This document shows positions 47,059 through 55,672 of a stretch of 64,000 nucleotides of DNA, piece after piece. Numbering within the stretch: position 1 is the stretch's first letter; each line of letters begins with the position of its first letter. The stretch spans positions 1,312,001-1,376,000 of the forward strand of contig OY970195.1 of assembly GCA_963708185.1 (NCBI GenBank), given 5' to 3'. The DNA comes from Candidatus Peregrinibacteria bacterium. GTDB lineage: Bacteria > Patescibacteriota > Gracilibacteria > UBA1369. The notes under the pieces were generated by a model. That model saw nothing but the letters and a program-made list of their open reading frames with translations. It had not been told where the DNA came from and made no database searches. The position numbers were made by a program, and so were the translations under genes.

Positions 47059-49260
47059 TCATTGCCCTTTGCTCAAGGCCTTAAGAAGTTCACGGACATC
47101 CTGGTGATTGTTGACGAAAAATTTGGCGGAGGACTGCCCTCCGCCGACTTTTATGGTGTCGGCGCTGGCAGGTAAGGATTTGAACATGTCTTCGTCCGTC
47201 GTGTCGTCGCCGATGCAGAGAATGAAGTCGCAGTGATGATCTTTCAGGTAATGGAGCATGGCATTGCCTTTGTCCGCTCCCGCGTTCCTGATTTCAATGA
47301 CCCTGTTGCCCTGGATAATGTGCAAATCCAGATTCACGGTGAGATGCAGTAGAACGTTGGCAAGGTCCTGGGCTCGCTGGAGCGCCAGCTCGGGGTCCGC
47401 CGCGCGGTAGTGCCAGGCCACCGAAAACTCTTTTTCTTCGATGATCGATCCCGGAAGTCTGTCCCGGTAACGCCGGAGGATGGGAATGACGATTTTTTTC
47501 CAGGTATTGTCGAACGGCTTGATCATCTTCCATCGGTCTTTTTTTTCTCGTTTCCAGATGCCGTGTTCGGCGATAAGGTCGATGTTGGCGGCTTTAAACC
47601 ATTTTGAGAGGGTCGTTCTGTCCCGGCCGCTGATGAGGACGACGTTCGTGTCCGGCATTTTGGCGATTTTTGTCAGGATTTTTTTAAGGCCGTCGTCAGG
47701 TTTCGCCAGTTGAGGATGTCTGCTGAAAGGGACAAGAGTGCCGTCATAATCGAGAACGATCAGTCTTTTGCTGCTTTCATAAAATTTTTTCATGATGCTT
47801 TTCCGTGCCGCAGCCGTGATGAATTTACGTTCGCGTTCCTTGTTCTGCTTGAGTTTGAAATCCTGCAGTTCATAGATGAAGTCATCCGCCCAGCGCTGGA
47901 CGGAATATGCTTTGAGCCTTTCCTGCATGGCGGTATTGCGTTCGCGTTGTTCCTTGGGTTTTTCGGTCAGGGATCTCTTGATGGTGTTCGCGACCTGTTC
48001 GACGTCAAGGGGATTGATGATGAAGGCTTCTCCCAATTCCTGCGCCGCGCCGGCCATTTCGCTGAGAATAAGGGTGCCGTTTTTTTCGGTCTGTGACGCC
48101 AGATACTCTTTTGCGATGAGATTCATGCCGTCGCGGAGCGGCGTTACCAGGGCGACGTCGCTCATGTTGTACATCGCAGAAAGTTCGTGGAAGGGCAGCG
48201 TCCGGTATTGGTAGATAATCGGCGTCCAAGTCAGGGTGCTGTAGGTGCCGTTGATCTTTCCGATCATGCCATCAATGATTTTTTTCATTTTCTGGTAACG
48301 GTCCACTCCGGTTCTCGAGGGAATGATGGTCAGCATGAGCACGGCCTTGCCGCGCCACTGAGGGTTTTTTTTAAGGAACAGTTCGTAGGCCTCCAGCCGT
48401 TTCGGAATGCCTTTCGTGTAATCCAGGCGGTCGATCGACAGAATGATCTTGAGCTCTTTTGTGACTTTTTTGAGCTCTTTCTTTTTTTTAAGTGTCCCCG
48501 CGGAGATCGCTCCCTGGTGAAATTTTTTGTAATCGATTCCCATGGGAATAACGTCGACTTTGACGTTGTGATCGACCGCGCTGATGACGCCCATGTGGTG
48601 TTCGAAGCCCAAAAGCCTCTGGACGCAGCCGATGAAGTAACGCGAATAGTCGTAGGTATGGAACCCCACCAGGTCTGCCCCCAGCATTCCTTCCAGGATT
48701 TCACGGCGCCATTTGACCGGCAGCAGACGGAATATCTCGAAAACGGGAAAAGGGATGTGAAGGAAAAATCCGATCGTCAGCCCCGGCATTTTTTTGCGAA
48801 GCATTCCCGGCAGGAGCATCAAGTGGTAGTCGTGGATCCAGACAGTGTCGTCCGGTTTAAGCTTCTTGATAAGCGTTTCGCAGTACTTTTCGTTGATTTT
48901 TTTGTAGGCTTCCCACTGCCGGGTATTGTAGGAGACGTACGAGGAAAAATAATGGAAGAGCGGCCAGATGGTGTCGTTGCAGAAACCGTTGTAGAAATCT
49001 TCCACCTCTTTTTTTTCAAGGGGGACTCCCACGAGTTTTTGCTGGGAAATCTGGCGGACGATTTCCGGAGTGATTTTTTTTGTGTCGGTGCCGTTCCATC
49101 CAAACCAGCGGTAATCACGGAACGGCGCGTTTTTCGGAGGATTATGAAGATACGAGTTCAGCCCGGTGACGAGCCCTCCGTTACTTTTTCCCAGTCGGGG
49201 CTTTCCGTCCCGCTGGACAATCGAAACAGGTATCCTGTTTGATACAATGATGAGTCTCAT
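47059..49260 (-). CDS. Bifunctional trehalose-6-phosphate synthase/phosphatase (OtsA-OtsB fusion)
   Basis: IIVSNRIP, GGLVTG, WIHDYHL, DRLDYTKG, RDGMNLIAKEY; HAD LDYDGTL, GDDTTDEDMF. Confidence 0.95.
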   Translation of the reverse strand: MRLIIVSNRIPVSIVQRDGKPRLGKSNGGLVTGLNSYLHNPPKNAPFRDYRWFGWNGTDTKKITPEIVRQISQQKLVGVPLEKKEVEDFYNGFCNDTIWPLFHYFSSYVSYNTRQWEAYKKINEKYCETLIKKLKPDDTVWIHDYHLMLLPGMLRKKMPGLTIGFFLHIPFPVFEIFRLLPVKWRREILEGMLGADLVGFHTYDYSRYFIGCVQRLLGFEHHMGVISAVDHNVKVDVIPMGIDYKKFHQGAISAGTLKKKKELKKVTKELKIILSIDRLDYTKGIPKRLEAYELFLKKNPQWRGKAVLMLTIIPSRTGVDRYQKMKKIIDGMIGKINGTYSTLTWTPIIYQYRTLPFHELSAMYNMSDVALVTPLRDGMNLIAKEYLASQTEKNGTLILSEMAGAAQELGEAFIINPLDVEQVANTIKRSLTEKPKEQRERNTAMQERLKAYSVQRWADDFIYELQDFKLKQNKERERKFITAAARKSIMKKFYESSKRLIVLDYDGTLVPFSRHPQLAKPDDGLKKILTKIAKMPDTNVVLISGRDRTTLSKWFKAANIDLIAEHGIWKREKKDRWKMIKPFDNTWKKIVIPILRRYRDRLPGSIIEEKEFSVAWHYRAADPELALQRAQDLANVLLHLTVNLDLHIIQGNRVIEIRNAGADKGNAMLHYLKDHHCDFILCIGDDTTDEDMFKSLPASADTIKVGGGQSSAKFFVNNHQDVRELLKALSKGQ

Positions 49261-49335
49261 GGAATCCCTTAACAGTTTGGGCACTCAAAAAGCCGTCTTT
49301 GTTTTTTCTTCTCTTGTTTAAGTTATAGTGCAATT

Positions 49336-50066
49336 TTTCAGGTATGGCAAGTGAGCTGCGGGCCGGGTTTTTGTGGAAACTGATTTATCATCAATTTTTT
49401 CTTCCAGCGGATTGACGCCGGAGGATAAATGGGTGTATCATTTAATGATACGTTCATTGAAAACAAGGCAAAAAAAAGTTTTGGGAAGAGTCGAGAGGTT
49501 AACATTAACCGTTGACCATTCAACCCTTCCTAAAATTTTCCTCCTCAGTAATATGGGTAGGTTTCATAAGAGAACCTGGTGTTAAAATTAAGCTTCGTGC
49601 TTACTCGCTTTTGTGGTTTCGAAAGGGATCATAAAGGACGTTCATCAGGGATTGTTCCTTTTTATGGTTGTTTTCGGGAGGGCCTGAAGGATGGCCGTAA
49701 AAAGAGTTGAATTTGAACTGGTTGGTATTGTGAGGGTGTCAACGATCCTTATTGTCGCAAGGTTTTAAGGAAGAAGACATTCTGTGATTGCAGCAAGAAC
49801 ACCGGTAACGGTTTTCAAGCAAAGATCATGGAGGTATGGATATCTGGGAAGAAAGTCTTTCCATGGGTTCGTATCTTGGCAGTATTGATTATTCGCGGAT
49901 CGCTGTAGCGCAAGTTACGGTCGTCACGGGGAGAAGTTCGATTGCGAAGCTAGGTGCAATGTAATCTTTGTACTGAACTTTGAGGCCAGTCTTTAAACAT
50001 CTTATGGGACAGGGGAAGATTTGGGCAGGGGACAAAAGGGGCCATCCGCAAAGATGGCCCTTTTTT
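49336..50066 (+). ncRNA. Candidate large (~730 nt) highly structured non-coding RNA, unassigned
   Basis: At least 12 helices rich in G-U pairs, four GNRA tetraloops, long-range nested pairings, no credible ORF, upstream TATAGT, terminal hairpin + U-tract. Confidence 0.75.
50039..50066 (+). terminator. Intrinsic terminator closing the candidate ncRNA
   Basis: GGGCCATC-cgcaaa-GATGGCCC-TTTTTT. Confidence 0.82.
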
Positions 50067-50123
50067 AAAAAAAATGATATAATTTTACAATAAAAGTGAG
50101 TCATAAAATCTTTGAGGAAATTC

Positions 50124-51401
50124 ATGCATACGAAACTTCATCCCAACAAAAAGAATATTGTGGTCCTTGGCGCCGGCTACTGCGGAGTCCAAATCGTGAA
50201 AGAGTTGGCGAAATCATTTCAAAATCGTCGTGATTATCAGATCGTACTCGTGAATTCAGGATTGATGCACGTTTGCAGCCCTGATCTTTACGAAGTGGCG
50301 ACTGCTTATTATCCGAAGATCACAAACTCCTGCATGAAAGAGTTGGCGGATACGTCATACATCCCTTTGCATGTCATTATGAAGAATCTGGACGTTGTTT
50401 TTTTGGAAGACAACGTCGAATCGATTGATTATGAGTCGAAGAAAGTTTCTTTGAAGAAAAACGGATCGCTGGATTTTGAATATTTGGCCGTCACGCTCGG
50501 CAGCGTCACGAATTTCTATCACCTTCCGGGGGTTGAAGAGAACTCTTTTCCGCTCAAAACGATTCAAGACGCACTTGATCTGAACTGTTATCTCGAACAG
50601 TTTTTTAAAGATCGCTGGGAGAAAAAACACCACAACAAAGTGCATCTGGTCGTTGGAGGAGGCGGTTTTACCGGTGTCGAATTCGCCTGTGAACTGAGAG
50701 AATTCATCAGGAAACTCGAAGGGAAATACGGTTTTCAAGAAAACGAGGTTGATATTTCGGTTGTCCAGGGAAGGGACGAGCTCATCGGACTCGGGAAAAA
50801 GATTTCCAATATTGCCCTCAAACGTTTCAAGAAACTCGGGATCCGGGCGATTTTCAATTCCAGAATTGCTTCGTATAAAGACAAAAAACTCGAACTTTCG
50901 GTAAAAGGGAAGAATCATACCGAGTTTATTCCCGCGGATGTTCTGGTCTGGACGGCGGGGGTTCATCCGAATCCCGTTTTGCGTTCATTCAAGATCTTGA
51001 ATCCGAGCGGGGCGCTTGAAGTCCTGCCGACGCTGGAGGCCGCCCACTACCCCCAGGTTTTTGCGGGAGGGGATAACGCGGATATCTTTGATCCAGAACA
51101 TCACAGTTTTTTGCCGAAGCTCGCACAGTTGGCGATGCAGGAAGGGATTACGATTGCCCATAACATTCGCGCGGCCATTGAAACCGGACCTCAAAAGGTT
51201 TATAAGCCCCATTTTAAAGGATTTATTATCGCCATGGGGGGCAAGTATTTTGTTTATAAAGGTTTTGTTACTTTTGGGGGCATCCTCCCATGGATGATGA
51301 GACGCGTATTGGATCTGTTATATTTTGTCGGACTCATGCCCCTGAAGATGGCGTGCAAAAAATGGATCAAGACAGAAGAGATTTTCATGCAAAATGACTA
51401 A
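50124..51401 (+). CDS. ndh: Type II NADH:quinone oxidoreductase family flavoprotein
   Basis: VVLGAGYCG, VVGGGGFTGVEFACE, WTAGV, FAGGD..AQLAMQEG. Confidence 0.85.
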   Translation: MHTKLHPNKKNIVVLGAGYCGVQIVKELAKSFQNRRDYQIVLVNSGLMHVCSPDLYEVATAYYPKITNSCMKELADTSYIPLHVIMKNLDVVFLEDNVESIDYESKKVSLKKNGSLDFEYLAVTLGSVTNFYHLPGVEENSFPLKTIQDALDLNCYLEQFFKDRWEKKHHNKVHLVVGGGGFTGVEFACELREFIRKLEGKYGFQENEVDISVVQGRDELIGLGKKISNIALKRFKKLGIRAIFNSRIASYKDKKLELSVKGKNHTEFIPADVLVWTAGVHPNPVLRSFKILNPSGALEVLPTLEAAHYPQVFAGGDNADIFDPEHHSFLPKLAQLAMQEGITIAHNIRAAIETGPQKVYKPHFKGFIIAMGGKYFVYKGFVTFGGILPWMMRRVLDLLYFVGLMPLKMACKKWIKTEEIFMQND

Positions 51402-53749: not shown

Positions 53750-54478
53750 ATGGATAAAATCTTATTAAATATTACAGAGGCGGCTCAATTCATAGGTGTA
53801 TCGGTTGATACGCTTAGAAGGTGGGATAAAGATGGAAAAGTAATAGCTATTCGTGCAGGCGGAAAAGGCACGCATAGATTTTATAGAAAATCCGATTTAG
53901 AGCTTTTCTTAAAAGACCCCTTTAGTCTAGCAAAGTCATGGGCATTTAGCCCAAATCCATTTGAGCCTGAGAAGGAATTTTATTGTCCAAATAGCTCAGT
54001 TTTTCAAGGAAGGCTTACAAAACTAGAAGCAATACTGCAAAAAACGAAAGAACTTGAAACAGATTTTTCCCTTATAACATCCATTACTGGTGAAATTGGC
54101 AATAACTCTTTTGACCACAACCTTGGGAACTGGCCTGACATAAACGGAATATTTTTTGCTTACGATATCAATAAACGAATGGTCGTTTTGGCTGATCGTG
54201 GAATTGGAATATTGCAAAGTCTGAAAAGGGTAAGGGAAAGTTTAACAGACGATAAAGCTGCGCTTGAAGTTGCGTTTACCGAAATAATTACAGGTAGAGC
54301 TCCAGAAGATCGTGGGAATGGACTTAAATATGTAAGAAAAGTTATTGAAAAAAGTTCAATGAGTCTATTTTTTGAAACTGGAGATGCTCAACTTGAACAA
54401 AAACCACATTCGTATGATATCCATTTACAAAAAAGTGGAGACAATTTCCATGGATGCTTAGCTCTTATAAGATTTTAA
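53750..54478 (+). CDS. MerR/Xis-type HTH fused to GHKL (anti-sigma kinase-like) ATPase domain
   Basis: ITEAAQFIGVSVDTLRRWD..R..Y; N-box EIGNNSFDH, G1 ADRGIGI, G2 RGNGL. Confidence 0.85.
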   Translation: MDKILLNITEAAQFIGVSVDTLRRWDKDGKVIAIRAGGKGTHRFYRKSDLELFLKDPFSLAKSWAFSPNPFEPEKEFYCPNSSVFQGRLTKLEAILQKTKELETDFSLITSITGEIGNNSFDHNLGNWPDINGIFFAYDINKRMVVLADRGIGILQSLKRVRESLTDDKAALEVAFTEIITGRAPEDRGNGLKYVRKVIEKSSMSLFFETGDAQLEQKPHSYDIHLQKSGDNFHGCLALIRF

Positions 54479-54787: not shown

Positions 54788-55672
54788 ATGGCAACCAATA
54801 TCCCTCAATCATTTCAAAAATTAAAGCAAAACCTTGAAATTACTGATTTGCAAGGTACGACAGTTTCAACACGACAACAAAATGTCCGTAAGGTAATGGA
54901 AGCGGGAATGCAAGTACTTGATTCATTCCTTACAGGTTCATACGCACGCAGTACGATGATTGCTCCTTTAAAAGAAGCAGATGTGGATATTTTTATAGTC
55001 TTGGACCCTAAATATTATTTTCACTACAACAATGGACAAAATGGGGGACAAGGCGGTTTGCTCGATTTAGTAAAAGGTACTTTGCGGAAAACGTATACCA
55101 ATACACCTGATATAAGCAGAAACGGACAAGCTGTAACAATTAGATTTGAAGATTTTGTAGTTGATGTTGTGCCAAGTTTTCATAGGCAAGGTGGTGGTTT
55201 TTTAATACCAAATTCCATAAATCAAAGCTGGATTGAGACAGATCCTAAAAAACATGTTGATATTATGGTTGCCGCAAACCAAACACACAATGGCGACCTT
55301 GTCCCTTTAGTCAAAATGATCAAATGCTGGAACAGAAATAACGGGAAATATTTTAGCTCATTTCATTTGGAAGTATTGGCTCTCCAAATTTTACAAGGCG
55401 TCACTATTTCAAACTTTTGGACTGGAATGCGCTATTATTTTGATAAAGGACGGACAATGATTGCCCAAAGAACACCTGATCCTGCAGGTTACAGCGGTAA
55501 TATTGGAGGCTATATCAATACACAAGAAAAACTACAAGAATCCATTGCGAAATTTCAACTCGCATACAGTAGAGCAATTAAAGCCGAAGAGTTTGGCCTT
55601 CGTGGAAACACAAGAGATAATATTGAAATGTGGATTAAAATATTTGGTAATTACTTCCCTTCCTATGGATAA
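54788..55672 (+). CDS. CBASS CD-NTase (SMODS nucleotidyltransferase)
   Basis: GSYARSTMIAPL..DVDIF, VDVVP, W..TDP..H, LVKMIKCWN, SFHLE. Confidence 0.92.
   Translation: MATNIPQSFQKLKQNLEITDLQGTTVSTRQQNVRKVMEAGMQVLDSFLTGSYARSTMIAPLKEADVDIFIVLDPKYYFHYNNGQNGGQGGLLDLVKGTLRKTYTNTPDISRNGQAVTIRFEDFVVDVVPSFHRQGGGFLIPNSINQSWIETDPKKHVDIMVAANQTHNGDLVPLVKMIKCWNRNNGKYFSSFHLEVLALQILQGVTISNFWTGMRYYFDKGRTMIAQRTPDPAGYSGNIGGYINTQEKLQESIAKFQLAYSRAIKAEEFGLRGNTRDNIEMWIKIFGNYFPSYG

Follow-up and report, generated by a model that had tools for sequence, protein, structure and literature searches.

A Free-Standing Gene in Candidatus Peregrinibacteria Encodes a Large Structured RNA That Probably Belongs to a New Class

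RESULTS

The RNA gene and its transcription signals

The DNA studied here is a 64,000-nucleotide (nt) stretch from a Candidatus Peregrinibacteria bacterium (GenBank assembly GCA_963708185.1, contig OY970195.1, positions 1,312,001 to 1,376,000), which we call the window. Within it, a gap of 840 nt separates a trehalose synthesis gene from an ndh-like oxidoreductase gene, and inside the gap, on the + strand, lies the gene of a large noncoding RNA (ncRNA) (Table 1). A preliminary description of the window had drawn a structured RNA of ~730 nt from 49336 to 50066 and taken it for a stand-alone large ncRNA. Its autonomy is borne out below, but the molecule is about 619 nt long, with a 5' end about 110 nt further downstream. 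When 61 related genomes were searched by blastn, nine gave matches, the window's own genome included, and the matches spanned only ~49445 to 50067. Moreover, when the DNA upstream of the copies was aligned, conservation was limited to promoter boxes, followed by a conserved TGAT. We place the RNA at ~49448 to 50066 because of these limits of homology, the conserved promoter boxes, and the terminal hairpin with its T run.

The promoter of the window's copy scored 10 of 12 in a promoter scan, and a TTGACA-like box, a 17- to 18-nt spacer, and a TAnAAT box stand at the same distance 5' of the RNA in 16 aligned copies. Judged from the position of the promoter, the RNA is predicted to start at ~49447 to 49450. 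The preliminary description had instead assigned the RNA a -10-like TATAGT at 49324 and had folded the DNA that holds the promoter into two helices (49400-09/49416-25 and 49428-41/49445-58) and the 5' strand of a long-range pairing (49347-56/49599-608). That spacer is unconserved in all homologues, and these elements lie outside the RNA. At the other end, all copies in the 23-sequence alignment close with a hairpin rich in G+C and, after it, a T run. A terminator scan reported the hairpin (50039 to 50060) on the minus strand only, with the tail CTTTTGTCCC. We read it as the + strand terminator, as proposed earlier, because of the folds, the U run, and the covariation of the stem (helix 24), in which 10 of 14 pairs have changed on both sides. 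The hairpin could work in both directions; no minus-strand gene runs into it.

TABLE 1 Features of the RNA gene and its surroundings, in window coordinates
Feature	Position	Strand	Description
ncRNA gene	~49448-50066	+	~619 nt; fold versus shuffles, homologues, covarying consensus, RNA-library contigs
Unconserved spacer with the RNA's promoter	49336-49447	+	Outside the RNA; homology begins near 49445
Sigma-70-type promoter (predicted)	49412-49441	+	-35 TTGACG 49412-17, 18-nt spacer, -10 TATCAT 49436-41
H1, 5' hairpin	49480-49502/49512-49534	+	Near-invariant base GGAAG/CUUCC, variable tip; 21 pairs
Main body, three nested long-range helices	49535-50020	+	H2 49535-43/50012-20; H4-H5 49561-71/50000-10; H10 49650-57/49984-91
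H6 domain	49575-49649	+	H6 49575-81/49643-49; hairpin H7; GAAA-capped H8/H9, loop 49621-24
H11/H12 long hairpin	49658-65/49697-704; 49669-78/49683-93	+	Invariant GAAGGA 49686-91
Central multihelix domain	49708-49940	+	Closed by H13 49708-14/49934-40 and H14 49719-31/49879-91
H21/H22 hairpin	49944-49/49978-83; 49954-59/49968-73	+	Shortened in some homologues
3' tail	50021-50030	+	UUUUAG-NN-AGG; complementary to 49525-49534, excludes 5' strand 49480-49488
Intrinsic terminator (predicted)	50034-50066	+	Stem 50034-47/50052-65, GCAA loop, U run
Fused trehalose-6-phosphate synthase/phosphatase gene	47059-49284	-	Upstream neighbor, divergent; Pfam Glyco_transf_20 8.3e-147, Trehalose_PPase 2.5e-49
Pyridine-nucleotide-disulphide oxidoreductase gene (ndh-like)	50112-51401	+	Downstream neighbor; Pfam Pyr_redox_2 2.4e-35

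Fold, covariation, and coding potential

The RNA folds far more stably than shuffled sequence. For 49448 to 50066, the minimum free energy of the + strand was -219.5 kcal/mol, against -169.9 +/- 4.5 for shuffles (z = -11.1). For the longer interval first described, 49336 to 50066, the + strand gave -256.8 kcal/mol against -199.9 +/- 5.2 (20 dinucleotide shuffles; z = -10.9), while the minus strand gave -165.3 against -143.0 (z = -4.0), such that the excess of structure claimed for the + strand was found when both strands were checked.

The preliminary description had named covarying homologues as a check, and these were found. The search returned 23 distinct sequences of 590 to 666 nt (22 full length; mean column identity, 61%), of which 19 are copies from 18 genomes and 4 are metagenome sequences, and they share a covarying consensus. 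As derived by RNAalifold from the 23-row alignment, the consensus has 202 base pairs in 24 helices. Cells were paired in 90.5% of 4521 cases, against 78.8% when partners were shuffled and 44 to 49% when the consensus was slid by 1 to 3 columns. Pairs that changed on both sides numbered 138 (85 shuffled, 56 to 78 slid), cells that changed on both sides numbered 603 (198 shuffled, 106 to 175 slid), and the covariation score was 0.451 (0.240 shuffled, 0.10 to 0.13 slid). None of 500 shuffles attained any of five covariation measures, and every helix but one single-pair "helix" has at least two pairs with two-sided changes. Substitutions in the stems are compensatory, and insertions and deletions are not multiples of three. 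Finally, 63 positions are invariant and many others are near-invariant, and they are concentrated in junctions and internal loops.

From 5' to 3', the RNA consists of an A-rich leader, H1, a body closed by long-range helices, a 13-nt tail, and the terminator. In H1, 91.3% of cells are paired and 14 of the 21 pairs show two-sided changes; in the nested helices of the body, such changes were found in 4 of 9 pairs of H2, the single pair of H4, 8 of 10 pairs of H5, and 6 of 8 pairs of H10. The central domain contains H15/16 (loop GCAA, 49757-60), H17 (GUAA, 49805-08), H18/19, which includes a near-invariant AGAAAGUCU hairpin at 49845-63, and H20 (GCAA, 49910-13). Together with the GAAA loop of H8/H9 (49621-24), these give the four GNRA tetraloops counted earlier, all within the RNA; the loop at 49910-13 is UUCG or deleted in some homologues. 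Most of the helices drawn from the single sequence recur in the consensus, as H1 (49475-88/49526-39), H8/H9 (49608-20/49625-37), H11/H12 (49658-78/49683-704), H15/H16 (the hairpin at 49747-70), H17 (49780-89/49824-33), H18/H19 (49833-41/49867-75 with 49845-52/49856-63), and H20 (49902-21), and two long-range pairings, 49713-19/49935-41 and 49720-30/49880-90, recur as the covarying H13 and H14. The exception inside the RNA is a hairpin at 49558-65/49570-78, where the consensus instead has the covarying helices H5 (49562-71/50000-09) and H6 (49575-81/49643-49).

The RNA does not appear to encode a protein. Across the 23 homologous sequences, no open reading frame (ORF) recurs with the same strand, position, and length, in keeping with the earlier remark that the region has no credible ORF. 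The longest in the window's copy is 48 amino acids (aa), and a minus-strand ATG within a conserved GATCAT starts ORFs of 62 to 90 aa in 5 of the 23 sequences.

Competing pairings of a central strand

Two covarying pairings compete for one strand. The central strand 49525-34 (consensus CCUUCCUA-AAA) pairs with the 5' strand UUUUAGGAAG (49480-49488) as the base of H1, and the same strand is complementary to the 3' tail, pairing with which would lengthen H2 to a closing helix of about 19 bp. A covariation scan outside the consensus gave 241 candidate pairs, nearly all of them clade-specific substitutions at columns already paired, and only column pair 130/679, which belongs to the tail pairing, was productive. 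The eight tail pairs are paired in 97.2% of cases, against 89.0% when shuffled (0 of 500 as high) and 21 to 63% when slid, with two-sided changes in 4 pairs and 15 cells. The H1-base pairs also covary. In one genus (g68; labels of this kind are ours), all three strands have changed together, and in two others (g41 and g79), C-G has become U-A through joint changes at the H1 bulge position and in the tail, while a relative, G065, retains C-G. Pairings that covary and yet are mutually exclusive within one molecule suggest that a strand exchange may be built into the RNA.

Presence in RNA libraries

The RNA is represented in RNA libraries. Contigs assembled from such libraries match 49576-49821, 49847-49997, and 49635-49996 with 0 or 1 difference (at least 99% identity). 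The contigs come from four small metatranscriptome runs (about 20 million letters each), which contain 45 to 56% of the sampled words; since the runs are pairwise identical in content, no more than two of them, from two studies, count as independent samples. Runs X5 to X20 contain at most 5 to 6% of the sampled words. No RNA-library contig covers 48900-49575 or 50040-50600, which does not show the flanks to be silent. The contigs hint that the RNA is transcribed.

Distribution and descent

Scans of large collections used a pattern in International Union of Pure and Applied Chemistry (IUPAC) code that matched all ten copies then known and was strict enough that divergent copies could escape it. 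Among species-representative genomes, the pattern gave 15 loci, 11 of which were confirmed by nhmmer and which added one new genome only; among metagenome contigs it also gave 15 loci, with 6 confirmed and 4 of these being new sequences; and among viral contigs it gave no matches, although divergent viral copies could have been missed. The matching records are labeled Candidatus Peribacteria, Peregrinibacteria, Gracilibacteria, Altimarinota, or Patescibacteria. We note that a contig labeled "Bacteroidia bacterium" (L029, 16894 bp) has an nhmmer score equal to that of a contig labeled "Candidatus Gracilibacteria" (L023, 16902 bp). The two are probably the same contig, mis-binned and present in two metagenome-assembled genomes.

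Distribution was surveyed with a covariance model of the 5' 179 alignment positions of the RNA. In the window's family, the RNA was found in 8 of 36 genomes and 7 of 25 genera but in none of the four other genomes of the window's own genus. In a sample of the order, 16 of 151 genomes and 3 of 19 families had it (f1, 5 of 22 genomes; f17, 7 of 21; f19, 3 of 11), and none of the 96 genomes from the other 16 families did. The model likewise found no copy in 135 genomes from the class's other orders or in 150 other genomes sampled from the phylum. All nine copies added by this search were full length by nhmmer. The preliminary description had spoken of an RNA in a reduced genome. The RNA is not general to reduced genomes, being patchy in three families of one order.

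In a maximum-likelihood tree, the RNA copies group by taxonomic family (4 changes, against a mean of 11.2 with shuffled labels and 0 of 200 shuffles as low), with family f17 in two separate places. We conclude that the RNA has been inherited mostly vertically, with frequent loss and at most occasional transfer. When 10.5 kb around the copy in genome G015 was compared with two RNA-free congeners in search of a syntenic site that lacks the RNA, short matches were found on different contigs of one (G035) and none in the other (G034). Genomes of the window's genus (G001 to G004) match the flanks of the window at 64 to 72% identity in short patches only. One genome bin, G007, has two copies of the RNA (L007/L010, on contigs C87 and C82) that are ~69% identical to each other; one is 100% identical to metagenome contig L044, and the other is nearest to L039, at 76%. 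Contamination of that bin is ~5%, and the two copies may reflect two organisms rather than paralogues.

Comparison with known RNA families

No Rfam 15 family gave a credible match to the RNA. When the 4227 models of Rfam 15 were run with cmscan, the 64-kb window gave two tRNAs and no other match at the gathering score. In the region 49200-50200, a threshold of E <= 10 gave nine weak matches, the best at E = 0.6 and none credible, to eukaryotic small nucleolar RNA (snoRNA), microRNA (miRNA), and long ncRNA families and to a terminator-bearing small RNA. In 12 homologous loci, the below-threshold matches within the RNA (E <= 1) were to a different family each, with none recurrent. We attribute such matches (snoRNA, miRNA, leader peptides, RsmY, and others) to chance, as they fall below the gathering score and lie mostly on terminators. 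The models of GOLLD, ROOL, OLE, and HEARO matched nothing in the window, the region, or the 12 loci. Group I and group II introns and the other ribozymes of Rfam gave no match either, and the RNA gene lies between other genes, with a promoter and a terminator that belong to it. RNase P RNA (RF00010) is encoded elsewhere in the genome (G000:C1:185828-186179, 175.6 bits) and does not match in the region, and transfer-messenger RNA (tmRNA; RF00023) is also encoded elsewhere (G000:C1:1209539-1209952, 123.6 bits). These results agree with the earlier statement that no hallmarks of RNase P, tmRNA, or group II introns are seen. What remains are the generic marks of a structured ncRNA gene, namely, a fold excess on one strand, covarying pairs, and transcription signals of its own. 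Publications on Peribacteria, Peregrinibacteria, Gracilibacteria, and Patescibacteria described no large ncRNA in the text that was searched, while their supplements, which lay outside the search, may list motifs, and recent preprints on ncRNA mining (2026), searched by term only, did not mention these taxa.

The signal recognition particle (SRP) RNA deserves separate mention. The window's genome has no match to the SRP RNA models RF00169 and RF01854, and RF00169 matched in none of the 36 genomes of the family. We considered whether the RNA stands in for SRP RNA and rejected the idea, as SRP RNA is undetectable across the family whether or not genomes carry the RNA, and there is no Ffh partner. 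Indeed, the SRP pathway is apparently missing: the window's genome, one contig estimated at 99% completeness, has neither an SRP_SPB domain nor an SRP54 GTPase domain, such that the domains of Ffh and FtsY are lacking, and across 151 genomes of the order PF00448 gave weak partial matches to the P-loop part only (best, 27.7 bits). An excerpt of one report gives two SRP subunits as absent from many candidate phyla radiation (CPR) bacteria (PMC8080830), and the absence of SRP is therefore already known in outline. The 6S RNA model RF00013 also had no match in the window's genome.

Neighboring genes

The genes around the RNA differ from one place to another. When 22 loci were compared, common neighbors were found within genera only, and the 21 loci other than the window's have different neighbor genes, in either orientation. 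Of 40 neighboring proteins scanned, 24 have unrelated Pfam domains (trehalose synthase, oxidoreductase, DEAD-box helicase, deaminase/kinase, RecR, STAS, MarR, HD, NUDIX, DUF805, methyltransferases, and SLH proteins) and the other 16 match nothing in Pfam; integrase, transposase, and phage families are absent among the 40. At 6 of the 22 loci, members of one protein cluster are encoded within 6 kb of the RNA, and SLH domains were found in all four of its seven proteins that were scanned. We rejected a link to the S-layer, as SLH domains are so common, with 65 matches in the window's genome alone, that the association is what chance would give. The 65 matches, in a genome of 1.44 Mb and with one in an open frame of 5561 aa, point to a large investment in cell surface proteins. 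In the window itself, the ndh-like gene has a promoter-like site of its own at 50064-50091 by promoter scan. Further downstream, an ORF with a SMODS domain (54788-55672, + strand, 5.9e-27) follows a MerR/HTH gene (53750-54478), and the pair could be a defense locus resembling the cyclic-oligonucleotide-based antiphage signaling system. In one genome, G092 (L080:983-1054), a tRNA gene lies ~20 nt past the 3' end of the RNA on the opposite strand, a single case.

DISCUSSION

We conclude, with a probability of roughly 0.85, that the window carries a free-standing gene for a highly structured ncRNA of ~620 nt, that the RNA represents a new class with its own promoter and terminator, and that the class belongs to one order of CPR bacteria in which it has descended mostly vertically. 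The gene is stand-alone: all copies inspected have a promoter and a terminator of their own, synteny does not extend beyond the genus, and covariation is strong. The evidence favors a class absent from Rfam 15, because the RNA has no homology to any Rfam family. The preliminary description had left the choice between a divergent GOLLD/ROOL-like member and a new class; the latter is favored, and membership in GOLLD or ROOL is improbable, with no Rfam match to either. A large ornate ncRNA as a broad kind has precedents.

Several points weigh against this reading. One alignment served both to derive the consensus and to count the covariation, which favors the consensus over its slid versions, and the shuffle control ignores the relatedness of the sequences; the margin is large despite both. 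Covariation of the tail pairing owes much to three clades, the genera g68, g41, and g79. Neither the strand nor the ends nor the amount of a transcript can be read from the RNA-library contigs, and DNA may be present in such libraries. The distribution is patchy, within the family and to the point of absence from the other genomes of the genus. Finally, no conserved partner gene was found near the RNA in the 22 loci, unlike OLE, and the proposal of a scaffold or assembly, made below, rests on analogy.

How the RNA acts may be approached through the orphan RNAs that it resembles. GOLLD and ROOL are often associated with phages or tRNAs, and OLE is accompanied by oap genes. The raiA motif RNA, at about 200 nt, is widespread in Bacillota and Actinomycetota. 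Like ROOL and GOLLD, the RNA is large, ornate, and rich in GNRA-type and A-minor-prone elements, and it has no assigned function; unlike them, it has no phage genes nearby, no viral-contig match by the strict pattern, and no match to their models. With OLE, which excerpts of the literature portray as a trans-acting, stand-alone RNA of unassigned biochemical function, it shares these traits, but OLE belongs to Bacillota, whereas the RNA here belongs to the CPR, does not match the Rfam model, and is not adjoined by conserved partner genes. With the raiA motif, described in similar excerpts as a structured, abundant bacterial ncRNA that has its own gene and no assigned function, it likewise shares its general character but again no model match. 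RNase P RNA is another multidomain RNA with long-range helices. A near-invariant AGAAAGUC string in the RNA loosely resembles what we take to be the conserved GGAAAGUC of P4 in RNase P, but AGAAAGUCU here is a small local hairpin, H19, and not a long-range P4.

The RNA may work in trans as a folded particle, either as a scaffold for proteins or as an RNA-only assembly in the manner of OLE, ROOL, and GOLLD. Several features incline us toward a trans-acting folded RNA: it is large, it has a strong consensus promoter, many of its junction nucleotides are invariant, it carries GNRA loops, and no neighbor is fixed. That it is a scaffold or self-assembling particle rather than an antisense or cis regulator is, by analogy, a reasonable working idea to which we would give somewhat less than even odds; apart from a ribozyme, which is the leading alternative and is considered below, roles of other kinds take up the remaining probability. 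Published summaries state that OLE, ROOL, and GOLLD form RNA-only homo-oligomers, either dimers or cages, and that the intermolecular contacts of ROOL and GOLLD covary. By the same analogy, the covarying and mutually exclusive pairing of the 3' tail could be an intermolecular contact of the ROOL/GOLLD type. The strand exchange might also help the RNA to fold, with the 5' strand guarding the central strand until transcription reaches the 3' end, about 480 nt further on. Alternatively, the exchange may be a functional switch or a swap between molecules. Whichever applies, the role is probably accessory: most relatives do without the RNA, and such dispensability would be less expected of a core machine.

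Other explanations account for parts of the data. The RNA might be a ribozyme, with the conserved junction and loop nucleotides forming an active site for some reaction, and its size, its many helices, and the invariant positions in its junctions and internal loops would suit one; papers on OLE RNA reportedly argue that such features are typical of ribozymes. We consider a ribozyme unlikely, as no ribozyme model of Rfam 15 matches, no substrate, cleavage site, or processing signal is visible, and most relatives dispense with the RNA. Far less probable is that the RNA is a very divergent GOLLD, ROOL, OLE, HEARO, group I or II intron, RNase P, tmRNA, or SRP RNA. A length of ~600 nt, GNRA loops, and nested multiway junctions do resemble OLE and ROOL, and the genome has no detectable SRP RNA of its own, yet the best Rfam match in the region (E = 0.6) is to unrelated eukaryotic families, RNase P RNA and tmRNA are encoded elsewhere, and the absence of SRP RNA is unrelated to carriage of the RNA.

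An origin in a mobile element, prophage, or defense island, as is often the case for GOLLD and ROOL, would account for the patchy distribution, for the two divergent copies in one genome bin, and for the split of family f17 in the RNA tree, and it would fit the SMODS-family gene found in the window 4.7 kb downstream of the RNA. We hold such an origin to be improbable to a similarly high degree, as the neighbors lack integrase, transposase, and phage families and show synteny within genera, viral contigs gave no match to the strict pattern, the tree clusters by taxonomy, and the bin with two copies, at ~5% contamination, may combine two organisms. Contradicted outright, and hardly to be entertained, is a cis-acting leader or long untranslated region, such as a riboswitch, of the ndh-like or trehalose genes. 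The RNA does take up the entire gap between the genes, stopping 46 nt short of the ndh-like ORF, but a terminator with a U run closes it, the ndh-like gene is preceded by a separate promoter-like site, the trehalose gene is divergent and on the other strand, and the neighbors are different at the other 21 loci. Likewise contradicted, and with next to no probability left, is a degraded or unusual protein-coding gene: short ORFs are present, including those on the minus strand in 5 of 23 sequences, but none is shared, and the compensatory substitutions and the lengths of insertions and deletions speak against it.

Few large bacterial RNAs have elaborate, conserved folds, and those of known function (rRNA, RNase P, group I and II introns, and tmRNA) do fundamental chemistry. 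More recently, by the published summaries, the orphan RNAs OLE, GOLLD, ROOL, and raiA have been found to form unexpected quaternary structures. The narrow and patchy distribution restricts the generality of what the RNA described here may teach, while a class of ~620 nt with 23 diverse sequences is well suited to R-scape, cryogenic electron microscopy, and chemical probing. We speculate, and regard as doubtful though possible, that it is the first large ornate RNA class specific to CPR bacteria and that its exclusive pairings serve as a switch or as a strand swap that builds multimers, or that it is a new ribozyme. If true, the RNA would represent a new natural RNA architecture, with a function supplied by no protein in these minimal cells. 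That minimal CPR genomes retain and apparently transcribe strongly a noncoding structure of 0.6 kb suggests that it brings them a real benefit.

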